Shown here piece by piece: positions 2,602 to 14,369 of a DNA stretch of 35,595 bases (position 1 is the first letter of the stretch; every line of letters begins with the position of its first letter). The position numbers and the translations under genes were made by a program. This DNA comes from Thermotogota bacterium (GTDB lineage Bacteria; Bipolaricaulota; Bipolaricaulia; UBA7950; UBA9294): contig JBDKUT010000087.1 in the NCBI GenBank assembly GCA_039679545.1, forward strand, positions 1 to 35,595, in the 5' to 3' direction. The notes beneath the pieces are model-generated. The model had not been told where the DNA came from and searched no databases. It saw only the letters and a list, made by a program, of their open reading frames with translations.

Positions 2602-2858
2602 CTTCACTTTTGGCCTTTGCCCCATCCAGGTAGCCGCTCTGTCCTTGCGGGAAGCCGCTGAGTCGCCCGCGTGCTGTTGCGAAGTGGCGCTCGCCGCCTT
2701 CGATCTCCCACTCAAGACTCTTCAGCGACCGAATGTCACCATCGTTGCAGTGCTGCAACCTGTCAGCGGCTGCGAGGCTCTCGCGATGAGACGATGTGAG
2801 GACGAATGGCAGCGATCCTTGTCTCGGCTCGGTGGCGTTGAGCAGGGAGGACGAAACG

Positions 2859-3614
2859 GTGGAAGAGAGGGTCTTCATCGATTGCGGCGGCAAGAAGCTC
2901 AGCGCGATTCACCGAACCTGCGGTGGAGCATCGAAGGCGCTCGTGATCATGGTGCACGGCGGGCCGGGCGGCGACAAGCGCGGGCCTCTTGGGCTGTTCG
3001 ATGTCCTCGCGGAGAAGCTGGAAGCAGAGCTTGGGCTCTCGAGTCTGCGCTTCGACTTCATGGGGTACGGCGAGAGCGATGGGACGCCGCTTGACATGAC
3101 GCTTCACTTGCGTGCCGAGGAGCTCGGCTGTGTCGTGGAGTGGGCGCGGGAGCAGGGGTACGAGAAGCTGGCGCTCGTCGCGGAGAGCCTCGGCGCATCG
3201 GTGGCACTGAAGGCCGAGCGGCCGGAGATTGATGTGCTCGTCTTCCTGTGGCCGGCGGTCGTTCTCTCGGACACGGACCTCAAGGCGTACTTCAGCCCAG
3301 AGCGGCAGGCCGAACTTTCCGAGCGCGGATACCTTCTCGAGGGGGATATCCCGGTTTGCGCGGAGTTCGTGCGCGAATGCCGCGACGAGGACCTCGTTCC
3401 AGCGCTCGGCCGGATACTCGTCCCGACCCTCATCGTGCACGGCGACGCCGACCAGTGCGTTCCCGTCGCTCAGGCGAAGATGGTGCACGAGCGAATCAAG
3501 GCGCCGAAGAGGCTCGTCATCGTGCCCGGTGGCGGCCACAGCCTGGGCCGCCCGGCAGAACGCGCGATCGTCCTCGAGGCCACGCTTGGCTGGCTGGAGA
3601 AGCACTTGCTGTAG
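2859..3614 (+). CDS. Alpha/beta-fold hydrolase
   Basis: VHGGPG oxyanion region, RFDFMGYGESDG, nucleophile elbow AESLG, HGDADQCVP (Asp), GGGHSL (His). GTG 2859 preceded by GGGAGG. Confidence 0.85.
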   Translation: MEERVFIDCGGKKLSAIHRTCGGASKALVIMVHGGPGGDKRGPLGLFDVLAEKLEAELGLSSLRFDFMGYGESDGTPLDMTLHLRAEELGCVVEWAREQGYEKLALVAESLGASVALKAERPEIDVLVFLWPAVVLSDTDLKAYFSPERQAELSERGYLLEGDIPVCAEFVRECRDEDLVPALGRILVPTLIVHGDADQCVPVAQAKMVHERIKAPKRLVIVPGGGHSLGRPAERAIVLEATLGWLEKHLL

Positions 3615-3795: not shown

Positions 3796-4956
3796 GTGGA
3801 ACGAGGAGAGACAGGTCGTTACGAGATCACCAACGCCGGAGGCGAGAAAGTGCGCGCCTTCGTCCCCGCCCCTTTGCCGCCTGTTCCACCTCTTGTGCTT
3901 GGTGGGTCACTCGGACAGGAGCTGGAGTCGGCGGTCCTCGCTCTGGGGCGACTCGACGGGGTCTCCGCATTGCTCCCCGACAAGACGCTCTTCCTCTATT
4001 CCTATGTGCGCAGAGAAGCCATTCTCTCCTCTCAGATCGAGGGTACACAGTCGTCGTTTTCCGATCTCCTTCTCGTTGAGCTTGATGAGGCGCCGGGCGT
4101 TCCCCTCGATGACGTCCTTGAGGTGTCGAACTACGTTGCCGCTCTTGAGTATGGGCTGGAGCGCCTCCGCGGAGGGTTTCCGCTCTCCAACCGCCTGATC
4201 CGCGAGATCCACAGCGTCCTCCTCTCCCGCGGACGAGGGAGCGAGAGAAGCTCGGGGGAGTTCCGCCGCTCGCAGAACTGGATCGGCGGCACGCGGCCGG
4301 GCAACGCGGTCTTTGTCCCGCCTCCTCACCTGGAGGTCCCCAACTCCATGGGCGCGTTGGAGCAGTTCCTTCACGCCAGGGATGACGGCCTGCCTGTCCT
4401 CGCCCGGGCGGGGCTCGCGCACGTGCAGTTCGAGACGATCCACCCGTTCCTCGATGGCAATGGCCGTGTAGGGAGGTTGCTCATCACATTCTTGCTCTGC
4501 CATGCCGGCCTTCTGCAGGAGCCGCTTCTGTATCTGAGCCTCTACTTGAAAGAGAACCGAAGCACGTACTACGAACTCCTCGACCGCGTGCGCCGCACGG
4601 GGGACTGGGAGGTGTGGCTTGCCTTCTTCTTTGCCGGGGTGAAAGCCACGGCTGAGGGTGCGGTCTCGACGTCGCATCGCCTGGGAGAGCTGTTCCGAGA
4701 GGATCGGGCGAAGATCGAGCCGAGCGGACGCCGTGTTGGATCCGCGCTCCGTGTACACGAAGCCTTGAAGGCCCGCCCGATCCTGTCTCTACCCCAAGCC
4801 CACCTCGACACGGGCCTGTCCTTCCCGGCGGTATCCTCCGCGATGGATCTCCTTGCCGAACTGGGCATTGCGCGTGAGTTCACGGGCAAGCGGCGGAACC
4901 GTCTGTTTGTGTATGACCGCTATCTCGCCATCCTGAACGAAGGGATGACCGCATAG
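3796..4956 (+). CDS. Fic family protein (AMPylase-type motif) with N-terminal inhibitory helix and probable C-terminal wHTH
   Basis: Canonical HPFLDGNGRVGR motif; SSQIEG fits the (S/T)xxxE(G/N) inhibitory motif; GEFRRSQNWIGG; tail TGKRRNRLFVYDRYL. Confidence 0.92.
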   Translation: MERGETGRYEITNAGGEKVRAFVPAPLPPVPPLVLGGSLGQELESAVLALGRLDGVSALLPDKTLFLYSYVRREAILSSQIEGTQSSFSDLLLVELDEAPGVPLDDVLEVSNYVAALEYGLERLRGGFPLSNRLIREIHSVLLSRGRGSERSSGEFRRSQNWIGGTRPGNAVFVPPPHLEVPNSMGALEQFLHARDDGLPVLARAGLAHVQFETIHPFLDGNGRVGRLLITFLLCHAGLLQEPLLYLSLYLKENRSTYYELLDRVRRTGDWEVWLAFFFAGVKATAEGAVSTSHRLGELFREDRAKIEPSGRRVGSALRVHEALKARPILSLPQAHLDTGLSFPAVSSAMDLLAELGIAREFTGKRRNRLFVYDRYLAILNEGMTA

Positions 4957-4992: not shown

Positions 4993-5448
4993 CTACTCGG
5001 CGGCCCCGGCCAGCTTCTCTCCCAGCTCCCGGCAGGCGCGCAGCACGGCGGCCGTCGGCTTGCCGCGCGACTCGATGGTCTCGCCCACTTGCTTGCCGCC
5101 GACGTACTTGAACAGCTTCTCGAACGGCTCGCGCACGTTGCCACCGCCCCCGTGTGAGTAGAAGAGTCCGTACGGTTTCCCTTCGAGGCCCTGCCGATCC
5201 TTCCCTTTGGCGATGTACCAATCGTCGGCGAAGGTCTTCAGCCCGCCGGCGACGTACCCGAAGTAGTCGGGCGTTCCGAATGCCACGGCGTCCGTCTTGC
5301 GGTACTGGTCCGGGTCGAAGCGGTGCTCGTTCGTGTTGACCAGCTTGACCTTGGCTCCCGCTTCGCGGGCGCCCTCCGCCACGGCCTCGGCCATGGCCTG
5401 GGTGTTGCCGTGCTCTTGTGAGTGGTAGAGAACGAGGACGAGACTCAT
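4993..5448 (-). CDS. Flavodoxin / WrbA-like NAD(P)H-dependent FMN protein
   Basis: FMN phosphate loop YHSQEHGNTQAMAEAVAEG, FGTPDYFG, FYSHGGGG; ATG 5448 preceded by AAGGAGG. Confidence 0.85.
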   Translation of the reverse strand: MSLVLVLYHSQEHGNTQAMAEAVAEGAREAGAKVKLVNTNEHRFDPDQYRKTDAVAFGTPDYFGYVAGGLKTFADDWYIAKGKDRQGLEGKPYGLFYSHGGGGNVREPFEKLFKYVGGKQVGETIESRGKPTAAVLRACRELGEKLAGAAE

Positions 5449-5589
5449 TCCGGCCTCCTTGTCAGTCAATCTTGATTTGTCTGCAAGAGAGTATCGAACT
5501 TTCGAATCGGCGCGAATCCCGCCCGCGACGATGCCTCTGTCGTGACGGGGATCGGGGCGTGTCCGCGATCGACCGTGCGTGCCCTGTTC

Positions 5590-5675
5590 AACCATCCGAC
5601 GCAGGCTGTATTACGTTCCAGTACCTGGCGGACCCGGAAGACAGCGCAATCGAGATCCAGCGCCAGGAGCGCTGA
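5590..5675 (+). pseudogene. Probable remnant (C-terminus only) of a VOC/glyoxalase family gene
   Basis: Reads DAGCITFQYLADPEDSAIEIQRQER*, resembling the VOC terminal motif 'F.Y..DPEGN.IE.Q'; no credible N-terminus or start. Confidence 0.4.
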
Positions 5676-5918
5676 AGCGCTACGCCCTGCAAGCGCACGG
5701 CCGGCGCCGCCAACATGCTTTTGATGGCTGATCTCCTCAGGCCCAGCGACTGAAGCGCACCGCCTTCCTCCGGCGGACTCCGAAGGGCCTTCCGCGCGTC
5801 CGAAAACAGCGACTGGGCTGCTGCGGCGGCAGGTGCACAGAGGGGCAATCCTTCATCGTCGGGGCCCTTGTTCGTTGTAGAATTGCGAAGCGAGGTCGAC
5901 AGCGGAAGGGGATGAAGT

Positions 5919-6377
5919 ATGGCAGGTGAAGTGCGTTACGGCCCGAATCGGGATGAGATCGTTGCGAAGGTCCTCGATGGCGAAGCCATCATGATCAACC
6001 TGGCGAAAGGCATCTACTACAGCCTCGATGGCGCCGGGGGAAGGATCTGGGAACTTCTTGAGGACGGGAGAAGCGCAGACGAGATCGCCGCCGTGATCGC
6101 TTCCGAGTTCGACGTCATGGCAGAACGTGCACAGGTCGACGTCAACTGCATCCTTCGTGAGCTGCAGAGAGAGGGCCTTCTGCGAGCCGCCCCCAGCAGC
6201 GAGCCGGCGCCGTCTGAGGCGCCAAGTTGCGGACAACTCCATGGAAGGCAGTCCTACCGTAAGCCGAAGCTTACGGTGTATCGAGACATGGCTGATCTGC
6301 TCGCCCTTGAACCCCCCACGCCCGGAACCGATCAAGAGGAGCTCTGGCAGGGCTTCGAGAAGAAGGCAGGTGGCTAG
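5919..6377 (+). CDS. PqqD family / RiPP recognition element (RRE) protein with C-terminal leader-peptide-like extension
   Basis: PqqD pattern DGEAIMINL..GIYYSLD..G.RIWELL..G.S..EI...I..EFDV.......DV...L..L...GLL, a linker, then YRKPKLTVYRDMADLLALEPP. Confidence 0.88.
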   Translation: MAGEVRYGPNRDEIVAKVLDGEAIMINLAKGIYYSLDGAGGRIWELLEDGRSADEIAAVIASEFDVMAERAQVDVNCILRELQREGLLRAAPSSEPAPSEAPSCGQLHGRQSYRKPKLTVYRDMADLLALEPPTPGTDQEELWQGFEKKAGG

Positions 6378-6394
6378 CCCCGCGGCGCTATGGA

Positions 6395-7114
6395 ATGCCC
6401 GAAGACCTGAGAGGGCCACGTATCAGTTGCATCATCCCGACCTTCAATACCGCGCCGTTTCTTGGAGAGGCCATCGAGAGCGTGCTTGAGCAAACCTATC
6501 CTCTCCTGGAGATCCTCGTCGTCGATGACGGGTCCACGGATCGCACCGCGGACGTCGTGCGATCGTTCGGCACCAGGCTCGCCTACTTGGCTCGGCCGCA
6601 CTTGGGAGCGTCGGCGGCGATGAATGCAGGGATTCGCGCTGCCTGCGGCGCGTACATTGCCTTCCTCGACGCGGACGATCTTTGGCATCGAGAGAAGCTG
6701 TCGCGGCAGATGGACTGGCTCGCCCAGAGGGGTGAAGTCGATCTCTGTTTCACTCAGTACCGCAACTTCTGGGTCTCCGAACTCGCCGAGGAAGAGAGGC
6801 TGTACGAAGGAAGCCTCCTCGCTCGGCCCACGTCAGGGTGGAGCGTCTCCACCCTGTTGACCCGCCGGGAGATCTTCGAGCGCTTTGGTTTCTTCGAAGA
6901 GAGCGTGGAAGAGAAGCACCTACAACTCATCTGGGCTCTGCGAGCTGCGCAGCAGGGGGCGGTTGTGGACGTGATTCCCGAGGTCCTCATGGACAGACGG
7001 CTGCACCCTGGGAACATCTCGCGGAGTTGGACAATGGATGAGGGCTTCTTCCGGCTTCTCAGGACCTGGCGGGACTTCAAGACGAAAGAGGCCGAGGCGT
7101 CAGATGAGGAGTAA
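6395..7114 (+). CDS. Glycosyltransferase family 2 (GT-A fold)
   Basis: ISCIIPTFN, EAIESVLEQT, VVDDGSTD, AFLDADDLW. Confidence 0.9.
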   Translation: MPEDLRGPRISCIIPTFNTAPFLGEAIESVLEQTYPLLEILVVDDGSTDRTADVVRSFGTRLAYLARPHLGASAAMNAGIRAACGAYIAFLDADDLWHREKLSRQMDWLAQRGEVDLCFTQYRNFWVSELAEEERLYEGSLLARPTSGWSVSTLLTRREIFERFGFFEESVEEKHLQLIWALRAAQQGAVVDVIPEVLMDRRLHPGNISRSWTMDEGFFRLLRTWRDFKTKEAEASDEE

Positions 7115-7225: not shown

Positions 7226-8350
7226 ATGCGCGTGATGTTCTGGTCCGCGGTCTTCTGGCCCTCCATCGGCGGAGTGCAGACCATGGCAGGCGACCTACTC
7301 ATCGCTCTGCGGGAGCGCGGCCATGAGTTTGTCGTGGTCACGGAGCGGGACAGGCCCGACCTGCCGGCGGAGGACCAGTACGAGGGGATTCCCGTCTATC
7401 GATTCCCGTTTGCAGCGGTTCTGAGAAACGCCGAGCGGTTGATGAGGGTTCGAAGCGAGGTCATCCGGCTGAAGCGCGAGTTCGCCGCCGATCTCTTCCA
7501 CTCCTTTGCCGTGAGTGCCAACGATTTTCTGCACCACACGACTCAGGATGTGCATCCTGCTCCTTGGCTTGTCACTCTTCATGGCGCGTGGCCGGACAGC
7601 TGTGACTCCTTCGTTCGAAGGACCCTCACGAGCGCGAACTGGGTCGTCGGCTGCTCGGCGGCGATCCTGGAGCGGGGGCGCGAGCTAGCACCGGAGATCT
7701 CCTCTCACTCCTCCGTGATCTACAACGCGCAGGAGCCCGGTTCCTACCGACCGAGTCCCCTACGGCTTGATCCGCCCGTCTTGCTCTACGTTGGAAGGCT
7801 CTCTCGAGAAAAAGGGGTCGACGTCGCACTCGAGGCTCTCGCCATCCTGGTCCCTCGGTTTCCGAGGATTCGGCTGGTCATCGCGGGCGACGGACCGGAG
7901 CAAGGCGCGCTCCTGCAGCAGATGGATCGGTTGAAGCTGGGATCTGCCGTTCAGTTCCTAGGATGGGTCGCCCCCGAACGGGTGCCGGCACTCCTCGATG
8001 AGGCTTCCATGGTGATCCTGCCCTCTCGGGAGGAGTCCTTCCCCGTCGTTGGATTGCAGGCGGCTCTCATGGAACGGCCGGCCGTAGCGACGCGCACCGG
8101 AGGAGTCCCCGAGATGATTCGGAACCGGAAGACAGGCCTCCTCGTTGAGAGAGAGAATCCCAAGGCACTTGCGGACGCCGTGGTCAGCCTGCTCGGACGC
8201 CCTGACGATGCGCGGCGGATGGGGAGCGCTGCACGGAGGCGGGCGGTCGAGGTGTTCAACTTCGAGAAGCACGTCCGGGCGTACGACGAGTTGTACCACA
8301 TGCTTGTGCCCAACAAGGGCGAAAAGAATGCCGGCAGGCGATCGCTGTGA
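7226..8350 (+). CDS. Glycosyltransferase family 4 (GT-B fold)
   Basis: FWPSIGGVQ, YVGRLSREKG, IAGDGPE, LPSREESFPVVGLQA, GGVPEMI...TGLLV; ATG 7226 preceded by GAGGAGG. Confidence 0.9.
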   Translation: MRVMFWSAVFWPSIGGVQTMAGDLLIALRERGHEFVVVTERDRPDLPAEDQYEGIPVYRFPFAAVLRNAERLMRVRSEVIRLKREFAADLFHSFAVSANDFLHHTTQDVHPAPWLVTLHGAWPDSCDSFVRRTLTSANWVVGCSAAILERGRELAPEISSHSSVIYNAQEPGSYRPSPLRLDPPVLLYVGRLSREKGVDVALEALAILVPRFPRIRLVIAGDGPEQGALLQQMDRLKLGSAVQFLGWVAPERVPALLDEASMVILPSREESFPVVGLQAALMERPAVATRTGGVPEMIRNRKTGLLVERENPKALADAVVSLLGRPDDARRMGSAARRRAVEVFNFEKHVRAYDELYHMLVPNKGEKNAGRRSL

Positions 8351-8423
8351 CGGTGAAGGCGGGGGCGGCTCTCCGAGTGACGCTTCGGCCTCCGACGTCT
8401 CCGGCGCCTGTTTGAGGAGAGCC

Positions 8424-9497
8424 GTGCCTGCGTGGACCGATGAGCAGAGACACGAGCGGATGGGGGTCGCGCACGCGCAAGCGACGCGGTTGTGTCCTGA
8501 CCGAATCCATGAAACGTGGTATACGTTCGGCGGCCGCGTGGTTCGAATGCGCATCGTCGGACATCAACTTGCGGAGCGGCTCGCCTTGCCGTTCGCTCAC
8601 CTCCGGCGCCGGAAGGCTGTGCCTTCCGACGCGAGACTCACCATCGACCTCTGGGATGAGCTGGAAACCGGAGTTCCGGCTGACACGGACCTGCGTCCCG
8701 TCGTCGAGGGCTCCAGCTTCTCGGCGTCGCGAGACGGGAGGTTCGCGACGAGCGTGCTGCAGCACTCGATAAGCAGCCTCGATCGACAGGGAGAGAGCAT
8801 CGTTGGCGTTGCTCTCGATGCTGACCGGCTCTCGGTCTACGAATGCGGTCGCCCGCTGCACGTGCCGCTCAGTCTCTGGTATAACGATCGCGGCGTTCCA
8901 TTGATCCACGCCGCTCTCGTCTCGCATCAGGGAGATGGGGTTCTCTTGGCGGGTCCCAGCGGAGCGGGAAAGACGACGTCGGCTTTGTCCTGCCTGTTTG
9001 CCGGTTTCCATTACTTGGCGGACGACCTGGCTGGGCTGGAGATCCCCGCTGATGGTGCCGCTTGGGGACACAGCGTCTATGGCTCGGCGTTGGTTGACCA
9101 GGGAACGCTCCTCCACCTGCCGACCCTCAGACCCCACGCCATTCTTGGGAACCACGGGCGCGGAGACAAGCGGCTCGTCTTCATCTCCCAGGTCAGCCCG
9201 ACCGAACTCGCAGGAAAGACAAGGATCCGCGCCATCGGCCTCGTACGTGTCGCCAACGCAGCTTGTTCTCACGTCCGGCCTGCCGCGAAGGGCGAGTCAT
9301 TGATGACCATGATTCGGAGTACGCTGCAGGGTGGAGCGCTCAGCCCGGGCAGACAGGGATTCGAGCTGTTGGGACGTCTATGCGGCGACGTTCCGTCGTT
9401 CTGGTTGGAGCTGGGACGCGGCGTCGAGGATGTCCCACGGTGTATCCTCGAGCTTCTCGTGGGCCGTGGGGAGTTCCCAGGAGGTAGAGTTCCGTGA
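8424..9497 (+). CDS. HPr kinase-related P-loop kinase (copy 1)
   Basis: IHAALV, Walker A GPSGAGKTT, YLADD. Start uncertain: GTG 8424 after GAGGAG, or ATG 8328 / 8460. Confidence 0.8.
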   Translation: MPAWTDEQRHERMGVAHAQATRLCPDRIHETWYTFGGRVVRMRIVGHQLAERLALPFAHLRRRKAVPSDARLTIDLWDELETGVPADTDLRPVVEGSSFSASRDGRFATSVLQHSISSLDRQGESIVGVALDADRLSVYECGRPLHVPLSLWYNDRGVPLIHAALVSHQGDGVLLAGPSGAGKTTSALSCLFAGFHYLADDLAGLEIPADGAAWGHSVYGSALVDQGTLLHLPTLRPHAILGNHGRGDKRLVFISQVSPTELAGKTRIRAIGLVRVANAACSHVRPAAKGESLMTMIRSTLQGGALSPGRQGFELLGRLCGDVPSFWLELGRGVEDVPRCILELLVGRGEFPGGRVP

Positions 9498-10615
9498 CAC
9501 CCGGGCCCGTGGGCTTCAGAGCGGCGTCGGTGTCCTGCGGCCGAAGTGGAGAGGTGGCGTTCTCCGCCATGCGGGAGACGTACGGGAAAGCGCTCCGCGC
9601 CAAGCCCGGTGAGGTCTCGACGACCCGCTTCGTCCTGGCGGACGCACCCGTCTCCCTGAGGATCGTGGGGAGCCGCCTGGCTACGTTGATCGGTGCCTCT
9701 TTTCGCCATCTGTTGAGCCACTCAGATGTAGGGATCTCTCCCCGCCTCACAATCGATTTGTGGGATGAGCGCGCCGCAGGGATTGGGTGTCCCCGCGCTG
9801 CGAGGGAAGCGGGGGAGAGGGGAGAGGCGAGACAAGAAGAAGATACAGGGATTGCGGTTGGGGCAGCAGAGGATCGCTATGTGGGGCACCTTCGTCCGGG
9901 AATCCGTTTGTGGATGGATCGCCGCGCCGCTCACGTGGTCGGCTGTGTGACGAGCACTGACGAGCTTACGATCCAAGATCGAGGAAAGCCGTTGTACTTC
10001 CCGTTGCTTCTGTGGCATGCGGATCGAGGGGTGCCCGTCATCCACGCGGCGCTGGTATCCACTCGCGGTGGAGGAGCTCTACTGGTCGGGAAGGGAGGGA
10101 GGGGGAAGACCACCGTCGCTCTCGCCTGCGTGCTTGGCGGCCTTGGCTTCCTCGGCGACGACTACATCGGGCTCGAGCAAGCAGGAGCCTGTCGGTTCGT
10201 AGGCCACAGCCTCTACGATTCCGTGTGGCTCACCGCGGACGGTGAAGCCCGCTTCCCTGCCCTTGTCCCGTATGCCGAGCCGCCGGAGCGTTCGAGTTCC
10301 ATGGCTCGACGCCTGCTTCATATGTCCGATGCCACGCCTGATAGGCTCGGGCGCTCAGTCCCGATTCGCGCCGTCGTGGCTACCGTCCTCAGCACCGAGC
10401 AATCCTCCTCTCTTCAGCCCGTCTCGCAGGCTGCAGCCCTTCTCGCGCTGGCTCCGAGTTCCATGCTTCGTCTTCCCGTCTCAGGAACGGCCTTCTTCGA
10501 ACGGATGTCGCGGTTGGTTGAACACGTACCGACCTACGAGCTGGCGGTTGGACTGAACACAACCACTCTGGTCCCCCTCGTGAGGAGGCTGCTTGAGCTG
10601 GAGGACCCGCGCTGA
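9494..10615 (+). CDS. HPr kinase-related P-loop kinase (copy 2)
   Basis: IHAALV, Walker A GKGGRGKTT, FLGDD; GTG overlaps the upstream TGA (GTGA) with GGAGG upstream. Confidence 0.82.
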   Translation: MTPGPVGFRAASVSCGRSGEVAFSAMRETYGKALRAKPGEVSTTRFVLADAPVSLRIVGSRLATLIGASFRHLLSHSDVGISPRLTIDLWDERAAGIGCPRAAREAGERGEARQEEDTGIAVGAAEDRYVGHLRPGIRLWMDRRAAHVVGCVTSTDELTIQDRGKPLYFPLLLWHADRGVPVIHAALVSTRGGGALLVGKGGRGKTTVALACVLGGLGFLGDDYIGLEQAGACRFVGHSLYDSVWLTADGEARFPALVPYAEPPERSSSMARRLLHMSDATPDRLGRSVPIRAVVATVLSTEQSSSLQPVSQAAALLALAPSSMLRLPVSGTAFFERMSRLVEHVPTYELAVGLNTTTLVPLVRRLLELEDPR

Positions 10616-10634: not shown

Positions 10635-13016
10635 ATGAGGCCAGTCCTGTCCGATACGCTCTCGGTTCTTCTTCCGACAGAGGAGGAGACGCTCCTGCTG
10701 CGCGCTTGCCTGTGCTCCCCCGACGTGGCCGAGGAGGCATGGCGCGCGTGGCTGAGGGGCGTCGGGGATCCGAAGAAAGAGCTCTTGCAACGTCGCCCCG
10801 TCCTCGTGCACCTTCTTCCACTCTTGCACTCGTCGATGAGGCGCTGGGATGCTGAGCTCCAGAGCGAATTCGGTTTCTGCCTTCGCGCCGCGCACTTCCG
10901 TGAGGAGCTGCGCAGTCATGCCTATCGAGACATCCTCCGGAGGGTTCTTCGGACTCTGGCAGACGAAGGGATCGAGGTCACGGTCCTCAAGGGTGCTGCA
11001 CTTGCGGCCACGGTCTACGGCGACTGGTCCCTTCGTCACTGTCATGACATCGATCTCCTCCTTGATCAGGTGAGTCTTGCGGCGGCATCCAGAGTCCTGC
11101 AAGACACCGGCGCCGCACAGAGGTGCGGCCCCGGGCGAGCGTCGCGAGACGTTCGGCTTCTTCACAAGAGCGGCCTCCCGATTGAGCTTCAGGCGGATCT
11201 CTTCGGCCATCCCTTCTACCAGAGGGGGGCGGCCCGATTGGTAGACTGCAGCCGGAGGGCGGAGATCGTCGGGGTTCCGACGCGTGTGTTGTCGCCCGCA
11301 GCAACGCTTCTGCACATCTGCGGGCATGCGTCGTACTCGGAGAGCCGCGCCAGCCTCCGGTGGGTAACAGACGCATGGACCCTCACGGCGAGGTGTGCCG
11401 ATCTTGATTGGGCCGCCTTCCTCTCGGATGCTCGACAGGTGAATCTCTCGTTGCCTCTTCATGTGATGCTCGAGTATCTCGGCGTCGGACTCGGCGTCGC
11501 GATCCCTCCTTCTGTCCTGCAGACCCTCGCACGGGATGCTCGACACGTGGGAGCCACCGCCCGCGAAGCGGCCCTGGTGGGAGTACACGAGAATGACCGA
11601 AAACTCCGTACGGCGACACGAGACTGGAGATCGAGAGCGGTCCTCTGGAGATGGGCTCTCCTTCCGTCGCCCTCCTCCCAGCGGTGGACCTGCGACGCAC
11701 GCCCGAGACGTGAAGTCCTTCTTCTTCATCTCAACCAGGGGGCACGCTTCGCTGCCCGACGCGCGCGGCTTGCGCTGGCACGGTCCGATAGGGATCGGCG
11801 AACAAAGCGGCTCCCCTCTGGAGAGAACGAAATGAGAGACGGGATGAGTGTCGTGGAAAAGCGTCCGTGGATCCCCACAGAGCGGCAGGCGCTCTTGGTC
11901 CGGTCCGCCCTCCTCGAGCGCGAGCCGGCGATTGACGCATGGAACCGATGGAACGCGACCGGCGGTCTTGAACGCATCGACGACGGCTCGTCAGCTCTGC
12001 TGCCGATCGTCTACCGAAACCTTGCCGGGTATGGAGTGAGCGATTCCGCGCTGAAACGCGCCCAGCAGGCCTACAAGACCACGTGGCTTGAGAACGAACG
12101 GCGCTTCCATGAGATCGCCGCCGTCCTCGAGGCTCTCAACGCGGCCGGAATCGAGACGATGATCCTGAAAGGCGCTGCCCTCGCGCTCCTCTACTACCGA
12201 GATCTCGGTCTTCGTTCCATGGGCGATGTCGATCTGCTCGTGCATCCTCGGCAGCTGCACGAAGCGCTCGCCGTCCTTCGCGACGCCGGATTCTGCATTG
12301 TGGGACGCCCCCCGGAGTTGCTGACGGACGTCTACCTGTTCTCTCGCAAGGCCATCAACCTGGCCTCGGCGGGCATGTCCATGCTTGACCTCCACTGGCG
12401 AGCCATTCAGGAAGTTCGCTCTGAAAGCGAAGAGAAGGCGTTCTGGGACGGGGCGACGACGGTCAGTCTCCACGACGTACCGACTCAGGCGATGAGTGCG
12501 GCGGACCAAGTCCTCCATGTCTGTGAGCACGAAACCCGATGGTGCCCGTCTCCCCTTCCGCGGTGGATGGTCGATCTCGTCATGATCTTCCGAGTCGCGG
12601 GGGATGCGTTCGACTCCGATCGCACCCTGGACCGCGCGCGGAGCCTTGAGCTGGTCAGCCCGCTTGCCGAAGCGCTTGAGTGTTTGGACACGGTCGTTCC
12701 TCACGAGGTCCCCCAGGAGCTGCTGCAGGGGGTGCGTCTCGCTCGCGCGACGCGCCGGGACCGACGAGACTACGAAGCGCGATGCCGCAGACCCGGGCCT
12801 CTACAAACGTTGCGTGACGAGTATCGCGTCCATTGCGATCGAACCGTCGACCAGAGCAGAATCCGTCGCTGCTTGGGCTTCCTGCAACACGTTCAGGCCC
12901 TGTGGGGACTAGAGCGACTTTGGCAGCTGGTGCCGCGCCTCTGGATGTGGGTGTGGCACACCGCCTGTCGGATCGTGTCGGAAAGCGACGGGCGAGCGCA
13001 CGGCGGCCAGAGGTGA
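10635..13016 (+). CDS. Nucleotidyltransferase family protein (NTP_transf_5-like), two tandem domains
   Basis: Two copies of the signature: VLKGAALAATVYGDWSLRHCHDIDLLL and ILKGAALALLYYRDLGLRSMGDVDLLV; each half opens with PTE...LL.R..L. ATG 10635 preceded by GGGGAG. Confidence 0.85.
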   Translation: MRPVLSDTLSVLLPTEEETLLLRACLCSPDVAEEAWRAWLRGVGDPKKELLQRRPVLVHLLPLLHSSMRRWDAELQSEFGFCLRAAHFREELRSHAYRDILRRVLRTLADEGIEVTVLKGAALAATVYGDWSLRHCHDIDLLLDQVSLAAASRVLQDTGAAQRCGPGRASRDVRLLHKSGLPIELQADLFGHPFYQRGAARLVDCSRRAEIVGVPTRVLSPAATLLHICGHASYSESRASLRWVTDAWTLTARCADLDWAAFLSDARQVNLSLPLHVMLEYLGVGLGVAIPPSVLQTLARDARHVGATAREAALVGVHENDRKLRTATRDWRSRAVLWRWALLPSPSSQRWTCDARPRREVLLLHLNQGARFAARRARLALARSDRDRRTKRLPSGENEMRDGMSVVEKRPWIPTERQALLVRSALLEREPAIDAWNRWNATGGLERIDDGSSALLPIVYRNLAGYGVSDSALKRAQQAYKTTWLENERRFHEIAAVLEALNAAGIETMILKGAALALLYYRDLGLRSMGDVDLLVHPRQLHEALAVLRDAGFCIVGRPPELLTDVYLFSRKAINLASAGMSMLDLHWRAIQEVRSESEEKAFWDGATTVSLHDVPTQAMSAADQVLHVCEHETRWCPSPLPRWMVDLVMIFRVAGDAFDSDRTLDRARSLELVSPLAEALECLDTVVPHEVPQELLQGVRLARATRRDRRDYEARCRRPGPLQTLRDEYRVHCDRTVDQSRIRRCLGFLQHVQALWGLERLWQLVPRLWMWVWHTACRIVSESDGRAHGGQR

Positions 13017-13133: not shown

Positions 13134-14369
13134 CTAGACGGACTCGTCGACCCGCTTTCCTTGTGCGGCCGACGGTCGCCACGCGATGAGCGCGAGCGCC
13201 GCGAGAAGTGCCACTCCCGCGCCGAAGTAAAACGGAGACGGAGCCCCGAACCGGTCCCACAGAGCCCCGGCCAGAATCGAGGCGGGGAGTCCGATGACAC
13301 CGATGACGGTGTTGTAGATCCCGTAAGCGGTGCCGCGTGAGTCGACGGGGACGAGATCCGCGACGAGCGCGCGCGCCGTGCCGTAGGCCGTTCCGTAGTA
13401 GACCCCGTAGATGAGGTACAGGAGCCACATCGTCCACTGTGCGTGGGCGATAGCGATGCCGAAGTAGATGGCCGCGTAGAGAAGCCAACCGCCGACAATC
13501 AGCTTCTTGCGGGGAATGCGGTCGGAGAGGGCGCCCGCCGGCGCGGCGACGAGCGCGTCGACAAGGCGAAAGAGGGCGAGCATCCCGAGGGTGGCGAGCA
13601 GGTTCGCCCCGAGCGAGCGAGCGCGAAGGATGATGAACGCGTCGGCCGAGTTGCCGAGCTGGAACAACGCGACGATGACGAGGAAGAGGAAGAACGGGCG
13701 TCCGAGGGACCGTTTCGTCGCTGTGCGATCCACTTTTGGAAGCGAGACGTCGTGTGCCCCGATGGCGAGCGCGAGGACGGAGAGAGCGGCGGGGACGACG
13801 CTGATAATCACAATGATGGAGAACGTGTGGGCCTGCAACTCGGCGGCCGCGCCCTGCGTAAACCAAACAGCGAGCATCGCGACGACGATGCCGAGCATCG
13901 TTCCGCCGGCATCCGCCGCTCGTTGGAAGCCGAACGCAAGCCCGTGCTTCTCTCTCTTGACCGAGTCGGCGACGAGCGCGTCGCGCGGCGCGGCGCGAAC
14001 CCCTTTTCCGACGCGGTCGACCCAGCGTGAAAGGGCGACCGTCGTCCAGGAGTTCGCAAAGAGGAAGACGGGGCGGACCGCGGCGGAAATTCCGTAACCG
14101 AGCACGGCCAGCCACTTCCGCTTCCCGAGGCGGTCGGACCACCAACCGGAGACGACGCGCAGGAGGGACGCCGTCGACTCCGCTCCACCTTCGATTAGGC
14201 CGATGAACGTCGGCTTCACCCCAAGCACGCTCGAGAGGAAGAGCGGAAGGACGGTTAGGACCATCTCCGACGACACGTCCATCAGGAAGCTCGTGATCGA
14301 GAGCGTCCAGATGTTCCTCGGAAGGCGGCGGGATTCCTCATGAGCGGTGCGCCCCAGGCTGGCGGTCAT
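13134..14369 (-). CDS. MFS transporter
   Basis: About 12 hydrophobic segments; SFLMDVSSEM, motif A GWWSDRLGKRK, DRVGKGVRAAPRDALVADS. Confidence 0.92.
   Translation of the reverse strand: MTASLGRTAHEESRRLPRNIWTLSITSFLMDVSSEMVLTVLPLFLSSVLGVKPTFIGLIEGGAESTASLLRVVSGWWSDRLGKRKWLAVLGYGISAAVRPVFLFANSWTTVALSRWVDRVGKGVRAAPRDALVADSVKREKHGLAFGFQRAADAGGTMLGIVVAMLAVWFTQGAAAELQAHTFSIIVIISVVPAALSVLALAIGAHDVSLPKVDRTATKRSLGRPFFLFLVIVALFQLGNSADAFIILRARSLGANLLATLGMLALFRLVDALVAAPAGALSDRIPRKKLIVGGWLLYAAIYFGIAIAHAQWTMWLLYLIYGVYYGTAYGTARALVADLVPVDSRGTAYGIYNTVIGVIGLPASILAGALWDRFGAPSPFYFGAGVALLAALALIAWRPSAAQGKRVDESV

Follow-up and report, generated by a model that had tools for sequence, protein, structure and literature searches.

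Linear polyphosphorylated peptides (LPP) are made in Bacillota by the LppA/B/K/S/N/D proteins from precursors of the pattern YxxPxVLxHQxIxFETxxS (PMC13381572). D70 of LppB bonds the leader Tyr (PMC13381572). Among related kinases, ThcoK and SyanK polyphosphorylate, placing phosphate onto phosphate (PMC9266682), and hexose on phosphate requires PsmN (PMC6993621). The module shared by these systems, a recognition element for peptides that are made on ribosomes and modified after translation (RiPP recognition element, RRE) with an HprK-like kinase and a PF14907 protein, is found in loci rich in polysaccharide genes, and neither its final product nor its role has been established, even for LPP and paeninodin (PMC13381572). 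A contig of 35,595 nucleotides from a Thermotogota bacterium placed by GTDB in Bipolaricaulota (assembly GCA_039679545.1, contig JBDKUT010000087.1; hereafter the window) carries a member of a family in which this module is cut to a soluble six-gene set, with RRE and leader in one chain. Within an unstudied sugar-building pathway this fusion protein is likely to act as an in-chain substrate that stays uncleaved, or as a docking element. Its parts, with confidence from the predicted local distance difference test (pLDDT), are:

5919..6377, + strand: RRE-linker-leader-tail fusion protein P0001, ATG start, 152 aa
5931..6191, + strand: RRE domain of PqqD/B1 type, residues 5-91, by PF05402 and fold matches
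6192..6254, + strand: Pro/Ala/Ser linker, variable and 17-27 residues long in the family, top-residue fraction 0.22, pLDDT 57
6255..6272, + strand: YRKPKL, a YxxPxL RRE-binding motif, residues 113-118, by conservation and pLDDT 95 (111-120)
6273..6302, + strand: rest of the leader-like segment, TVYRDMADLL, residues 119-128, predicted strand 119-121 and helix 124-128
6303..6323, + strand: ALEPPTP, residues 129-135, with the near-invariant acid-Pro pair E131-P132 (nt 6309-6314), a candidate modified site
6345..6347, + strand: Trp143, conserved yet dispensable (W in 64/75 rows; some tails stop earlier)

An earlier note, made from the sequence alone, had described this reading frame as a PqqD-type RRE carrying its own lasso-type leader motif in cis. 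The translation it gave is identical to ours, the Y113 codon begins at nt 6255 as it placed the motif, and its PqqD call is borne out by a PF05402 match at residues 22-88 (E 1.2e-15, 58 bits against a cut-off of 23.4) and by a modelled fold of three strands and three helices. The best fold matches of the modelled RRE are TbiB1 (Z 12.1, rmsd 2.3 over 88 residues) and TfuB1 (Z 10.9), and the fold is nearest to the lasso B1 proteins solved with leaders. By alignment, D74 corresponds to the Tyr-pocket residue D70 of LppB and D37 to LppB N33 (numbering of PMC13381572). Every score of the fusion protein against the NCBIfam PqqD sub-family models lies under the cut-off, and an atlas search named PqqD clusters and nothing else. 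Ser35 in strand 3 of the RRE (YYS; window 6018-6026) is Ser or Thr in 72/75 rows. The element GGAAGGGG sits a short way upstream of the ATG, and no sigma-70-like promoter was found at 5550-6500.

A YxxPxL motif arises in 2.9% of 20,000 shuffles of the fusion protein (17% for a looser form), so that its evidential weight comes from conservation. A first search found 169 homologues, and the figures that follow from it rest on the 120 listed. Y113, P116, Y121, D123, M124, D126, L127, P132 and P133 are invariant across the 79 of these aligned with the query, and the full tail motif is present in 120 of 121 proteins, a partly circular count as the set was ranked by whole-query similarity. Scanning species genomes turned up 78 loci. 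With the window counted, 74 loci make up the family, its counts leaving out L069, L071, L073 and L078 (short RRE, sister family) and L074 (a sister-family fusion, included in the 75-row tables); L039, from an unpublished genome (G027), is within the counts and excluded from trees, and no conclusion rests on it. By record title the 74 loci span at least 15 phyla, the nearest being titled Candidatus Bipolaricaulota, and alignment of the homologous tails, a check proposed in the earlier note, finds them conserved across these phyla.

The mean top-residue fraction reaches 0.66 over residues 113-128 and 0.76 over residues 129-135, against 0.53 in the RRE and 0.22 in the linker; as aligned, the tail is more conserved than the RRE. 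When the protein is compared with that of L001, a close relative, the 31 tail codons (113-143) show 2 amino-acid replacements and 15 silent substitutions, the 22 linker codons 17 replacements and the 84 RRE codons 22. In codon comparisons with seven relatives, change in the tail is mainly silent and change in the linker free; judged by its codons, the tail is under strong purifying selection. That the tail might be the functionless remnant of a read-through fusion would suit the patchy, accessory nature of the cassette, which 2 of the 40 relatives searched possess, the two belonging to the same genus, and also the RNA runs, one with a share of 0.04 and three with none, which gave no evidence of expression; it is contradicted by this selection and by conservation over at least 15 phyla, and we regard it as scarcely credible.

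The family has two tail types, DM[AG]DLLALDPPxP and DMQ[DE]LLLLDP[IV]H, and within the former the window protein falls in a small Glu-Pro branch. A profile search of representatives at 50% identity gave 213 at E 1e-30 or better. Among the best 150, 144 have an anchorable tail and 6 do not; in the 144, position 123 is Asp in 139, 131 is Asp or Glu in 141 and 132 is Pro in 141, while 126 varies. The three rows lacking an acid at 131 are P0176 (Asn), P0243 (mis-anchored) and P0222 (apparently frameshifted). Because the 150 were ranked by a profile containing the tail, this conservation is partly circular; the DPIH clade, reached via the RRE pattern, is a more independent check. The C-termini of family tails are variable. 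At position 128, the penultimate-Thr site of lasso and LPP leaders, 75 rows hold Leu (65), Ile (7), Val (2) and Phe (1); an Ile exception to the penultimate Thr of lasso leaders has reportedly been seen (PMC10368454).

Does the tail fill the cleft of its own RRE? In the AlphaFold2 model pLDDT is 93-96 for the RRE, falls to 57 in the linker, returns to 95 at residues 111-120 and is 53-69 in the flanking segment on the other side, and a strand is predicted at 119-121. D74 is present in 102 of 108 representatives and the Tyr in 104. Of 68 rows, 51 pair Tyr with Asp/Asn74 and 14 pair Phe with a different residue, leaving 3 exceptions. Firmer evidence is that all eight tandem-RRE proteins with a terminal tail have an own [YF]xxPx(hydrophobic) motif after the first RRE and before the next, whereas the D-M...D-P extension occurs once only and is absent after the first RRE's motif, a pattern indicating that RRE and short motif form one unit and that the extension has a separate function. 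Two or three tandem RRE-leader units are seen in P0241, P0281, P0132, P0134, P0136, P0138, P0141, P0150, P0225 and P0243, and in two homologues, P0241 and P0281, the tail is internal. Two points weigh on the other side: the predicted docking is read from pLDDT and secondary structure (DSSP) rather than from coordinates, and the Tyr-Asp74 covariation, though in the expected direction, mainly reflects one clade split, with 1 independent pair on the starred branches, where significance is unattainable. With these set against the rest, YRKPKL very probably occupies the RRE cleft of its own chain. The tail is a leader of lasso/LPP type, as the earlier note held, most likely bound in cis.

The enzymes that would meet this unit are encoded by five downstream genes of the same orientation, whose ends lie close together or overlap, and to which the earlier note had also linked it; they are real enzymes and the fusion protein belongs with them:

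6395..7114, + strand: short GT2 glycosyltransferase, DADD motif at 6668 (PF00535 E 5.5e-34)
7226..8350, + strand: GT4 glycosyltransferase (PF00534 E 1.9e-39; start 7226 likely, 7154 possible)
8328..9497, + strand: HprK/PEPCK-like kinase 1, with His (8907), Walker A Lys (8970) and Asp-Asp (9021-9026) intact
9494..10615, + strand: HprK/PEPCK-like kinase 2, 32% identical to kinase 1, with IHAAL, GKTT and GDDY present
10635..13016, + strand: tandem PF14907 nucleotidyltransferase-like protein (PF14907 E 1.7e-75, two stretches), each domain with LKG and DxD

Catalytic motifs are intact in these enzymes, including the His-Lys-Asp-Asp set described for lasso kinases (PMC9266682). In fold, kinase 1 matches PEP carboxykinase over its length (TM about 0.5, E 5e-11) and HprK as well. 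Local profiles, applied to flanks of up to 10 kb (49 loci of at least 14 kb), find GT2 in 68 of the 74 loci and the HprK/PEPCK-like kinase in 63; PF14907 is present in 53 and GT4 in 47. The gene right after the RRE-tail gene is a kinase in 40 loci and GT2 in 23. Four of five genomes with a kinase-less locus hold a family kinase elsewhere, and in two of the genomes it shares the contig with the locus and lies 13-26 kb downstream. In P0241 an RRE-tail, two more RREs and a kinase (E 3e-91 to the family kinase model) share one chain, and kinase-GT2 fusions occur in L051, L056 and L066. Subsets of loci carry variable extras, namely epimerases, N-acylglucosamine epimerase, Wzm/Wzt, MsbA-type ABC proteins, radical SAM proteins and sulfotransferases; ABC ATPases of mixed kinds are found in 15/79 loci, and the window operon has no exporter. 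Pfam scans (E 1e-7) of 194 of 303 unassigned neighbouring open reading frames (ORFs) found no S24/S26, no B2 and no further recurring enzyme. One locus, L006, has three RRE-tail gene copies (2709-3152, 8150-8593 and 10736-11179), all with the same tail, within 9 kb of a glycosyltransferase cluster, and its kinases lie 17-26 kb beyond them. In another (L115:5910-6326; G004:C91) a different type of fused RRE tail (FSDPVLLKHDEPL...LHPFDPQLPLAE) stands between a family kinase and GT2.

The earlier note had seen no separate precursor nearby, and this holds both locally and in the genome: none is found among the 22 ORFs of at least 20 aa at 5500-6500, and a genome-wide leader-motif scan gave 11 candidates, none of them tail-like, in an assembly 93.55% complete. 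This genome has one PF05402 match and gave none for PF13471 (B2). A + strand, ATG-led scan of the 74 loci found no recurring small leader ORF. Nine database proteins of 30-80 aa match the tail, all starting within helix 3 or the linker, and to judge from these starts they read as fragments of the fusion. The tail could otherwise be an auto-inhibitory or stabilising plug, displaced by a precursor encoded elsewhere; LppB is insoluble without leader (PMC13381572) and the genomes are incomplete, which leaves room for such a role. It is quite improbable given that neither the genome nor the loci yield a candidate and the short matches look like fusion fragments, and a plug would not need the D-P 13 residues beyond the binding motif.

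Leader peptidases are also missing: B2 (13-sequence local model) and S26 (SpI-like; 5-sequence local model) are each found in 0 of 74 loci, while the S26 model detected S26 in 65 of 95 sister-family pattern hits. In the 48 genomes searched B2 genes lie away from the cassette; most of them adjoin other short RREs, and the closest is some 12 kb off on the opposite strand. A released lasso-like product is unlikely because all 74 loci lack B2 and S26 and because the tail is internal in two homologues.

An LPP-like sister family with the tail LEKLIxSGE illustrates how fusions of this kind come about. The L069, L071, L073 and L078 loci have a 94-aa RRE, which in L073 overlaps a 49-aa peptide (8969-9118) ending YEPPKLVKFDKLEKLIVSGE, near an S26 peptidase, a kinase and GT4. 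The same tail is fused to an RRE in L117:667-1056 (G016:C5), and L074:7208-7603 has a fused tail lacking Ser (ending LEKLIIAAV) with an S26 peptidase gene still adjacent. A search of metagenomes with L117 as the sole query protein gave no hits. A DNA pattern scan gave 95 metagenome loci (L135-L229), of which 26 are fused, 28 free, 4 unclear and 37 without the exact tail (12 leader-bearing CGE variants, most others chance); the pattern fixes the letters SGE, whose constancy is therefore no evidence. Free or fused, the precursor is nearly core-less, ends LEKLI[VL]SGE and lies beside S26 peptidase, kinase, PF14907 and GT4. Its occurrence in both forms makes RRE-precursor fusion natural and repeated. 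The fused forms retain Ser and peptidase and look like substrates. In an RRE-only quick tree (86 columns) the sister family is a separate branch (support 98), and several switches between fused and free forms are needed.

The tail in the window family might be modified and then released as a short phospho-glycopeptide, which would make the protein a true fused RiPP precursor; release would be by a protease elsewhere or by acid-Pro cleavage, which could also attach a glycan to the protein by way of an Asp anhydride. Its leader-like register and the sister family's fused precursors beside S26 fit this, as does ITH3, in which Asp-Pro cleavage gives an anhydride that esterifies a glycan (PMC8267560). 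The lack of B2 and S26 in the loci, the distant position of B2 genes, the Leu replacing the Thr of lasso and LPP leaders and the variable C-termini all speak against it, and the window protein has Glu-Pro rather than Asp-Pro, the animal ITH3 being an analogy only. We consider release improbable.

If the tail is modified in place, which residue accepts? The earlier note had proposed either the tail as substrate, with Thr, Tyr, Asp or Glu available, or a self-occupied RRE serving as scaffold; for the substrate, the acidic option survives, and a Thr or Tyr acceptor is not supported, these residues being unconserved (position 134 is Thr in 10/75 rows, 137 mostly Leu or Val, and Y121 is Phe or His in 9/75). 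After the leader, 18/74 tails have no Ser or Thr and 37/74 no Ser. As a possible acceptor in the linker, Ser or Thr is present in 72/74 cases, but at 14% content and in no fixed position. Position 131, by contrast with the Thr and Tyr sites, is Asp or Glu in 74/74 family loci, Asp in most relatives. Counted from the anchoring Tyr it is residue 19, the same as phospho-Ser3 of LppA (PMC13381572). We therefore tentatively favour, at slightly less than even confidence, a self-occupied RRE that presents the invariant acid (E131, mostly Asp) to the kinase as an uncleaved glycan carrier. The glycan context, with epimerases, exporters and sulfotransferases in subsets of loci, counts for this carrier, as do the frequent kinase neighbour and the kinase fusion in P0241; the sister family's free and fused forms suggest a precursor-type origin for the tail.

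Several observations pull the other way. The Ser of the sister family, its residue 18, lines up with the invariant Leu130 and not with E131, and on the quick RRE-only tree that family falls outside the window's, so that the tree does not show descent from it. The LppA leader has a bulge, which makes the register uncertain by one residue, and LppK rejected even S3T and S3Y, being strict for Ser (PMC13381572). No characterised HprK-like RiPP kinase is known from the cited papers to phosphorylate a carboxylate, and P0176 has Asn at 131. As for the kinase, GT2 neighbours the RRE-tail as often as the kinase does, a search of the G018 genome found no family kinase, the kinase fusion P0241 is a single sequence from one 3-kb contig, and a GT4-RRE-tail fusion also exists (P0131).

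Somewhat less probable than the carrier is a reading in which the self-occupied RRE stays unmodified and acts as a scaffold or an activating subunit, with DMxDLLxLDP as a docking or pseudo-substrate segment and a sugar, a lipid or another protein as acceptor; the acid would mimic phosphoserine, and kinase, transferase and glycosyltransferases would be held active. The tail has no conserved hydroxyl and has Leu at the sister family's Ser position, no peptidase lies in the loci, P0241 and P0281 hold the tail internally, the repeated RRE-leader units of tandem proteins have a structural look, the kinase resembles in fold the small-molecule enzyme PEP carboxykinase, and Asn is tolerated once at 131, all of which favours a scaffold. 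Yet it is not obvious why docking alone should call for an acid fixed at most one residue from the known phospho-site, no other conserved acceptor gene recurs across the loci, and the sister family's fused forms, with Ser and peptidase kept, are substrate-like.

For the favoured carrier, a sequence of events can be proposed that starts from the observed domain order, conservation, gene partners and lack of a leader peptidase nearby. YRKPKL is predicted to bind its own RRE in cis, giving a pre-loaded RRE-leader unit, which the DMxDLL helix may dock onto the kinase. The kinase would then phosphorylate the carboxylate of E131 or its Asp counterpart, the weakest step; as kinase relatives add phosphate to phosphate, anhydride-forming chemistry has precedent. 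By analogy with PsmN, the PF14907 protein would add the first sugar to the phosphate, and GT2 and GT4 might extend it. More speculatively, the labile link could pass the glycan to an exporter or surface polymer, and the protein could be reused. In its fullest form, this permanently self-loaded RRE would be a reusable carrier comparable to acyl carrier protein, on whose kinase-activated Asp or Glu a phospho-oligosaccharide is built and handed on without proteolysis; we hold that version to be rather unlikely.

Were the acid indeed the acceptor, both the chemistry of the kinase and the manner in which a glycan is primed would be new. Since recognition domain and leader share one chain, what the enzymes build can be tested without a precursor hunt. 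Of PF05402 proteins, 21% exceed the length of a discrete RRE without other annotation (PMC12710340), and the window family accounts for part of these.

Other genes noted around the cassette are:

158-2407, - strand: 749-aa protein that appears to have a signal peptide and carries a WD40 propeller and a C1 peptidase domain of the papain family
2796-3614, + strand: alpha/beta hydrolase
3796-4956, + strand: gene of the Fic/DOC family, Fic_N domain included, lying upstream of the cassette
4993-5595, - strand: flavodoxin-like gene
13134-14369, - strand: MFS transporter converging on the cassette end, with no sign of belonging to it

PqqD-like chaperones beside HprK-like kinases are also found in the HPr-rel-A, HprK-related kinase B and SynChlorMet PqqD cassettes (TIGR04352-5, TIGR04248-9), but scores against the HPr-rel-A/SynChlorMet/GeoRSP NCBIfam models are far lower than these models ask (kinase 29-32 bits against 200, RRE 24 against 100). 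The LEKLIxSGE family shares an RRE and a leader with equal spacing of Y, P, L, F/Y and L/M, and a kinase, PF14907 and GT4 nearby; it differs in its Ser (or Cys), adjacent S26 peptidase, free peptide form and own branch. In engineered ConFusion enzymes and in borosin methyltransferase-precursor fusions a recognition peptide is likewise tethered in cis to its binder, whereas in the window the peptide is tethered to a non-catalytic RRE, with the enzymes acting in trans. Full-text searches, which do not cover most subscription papers, brought up no account of an RRE joined to a leader of its own, and RRE datasets may list such proteins.

With the paeninodin and pseudomycoidin systems (PadeK, ThcoK, PsmK, PsmN; PMC6993621, PMC9266682) the family shares a B1-like RRE fold (TbiB1, TfuB1, PbaB1), an intact kinase His-Lys-Asp-Asp set and a PF14907-type protein with DxD, but it lacks B2, a conserved lasso cyclase, the penultimate Thr, a C-terminal Ser and a separate precursor. 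None of the five enzymes of the operon is a lasso macrolactam synthetase; Asn-synthase family members occur in 5/79 loci, and both that were scanned carry a GATase domain, like AsnB-type amidotransferases. To LPP the likeness extends to a discrete-type RRE with the D70 pocket residue (9x8z_B match, E 2.7e-9), a YxxPx leader, an HprK-like kinase with an NTP transferase, no cyclase and glycosyltransferase-rich surroundings. The family departs from LPP, whose precursor is separate, in having RRE and leader in one chain; in the lack of SpI/S26 peptidase (0/74); in Leu-acid-Pro with no Ser at residue 18 or 19, where LPP has phospho-Ser3; and in short GT2 and GT4 as core genes, an exporter in a minority of loci and other phyla. 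With no S26, no Ser and no free precursor it falls outside LPP. The window family thus resembles the LPP/pseudomycoidin tailoring module, yet belongs neither to the LPP nor to the lasso peptides.
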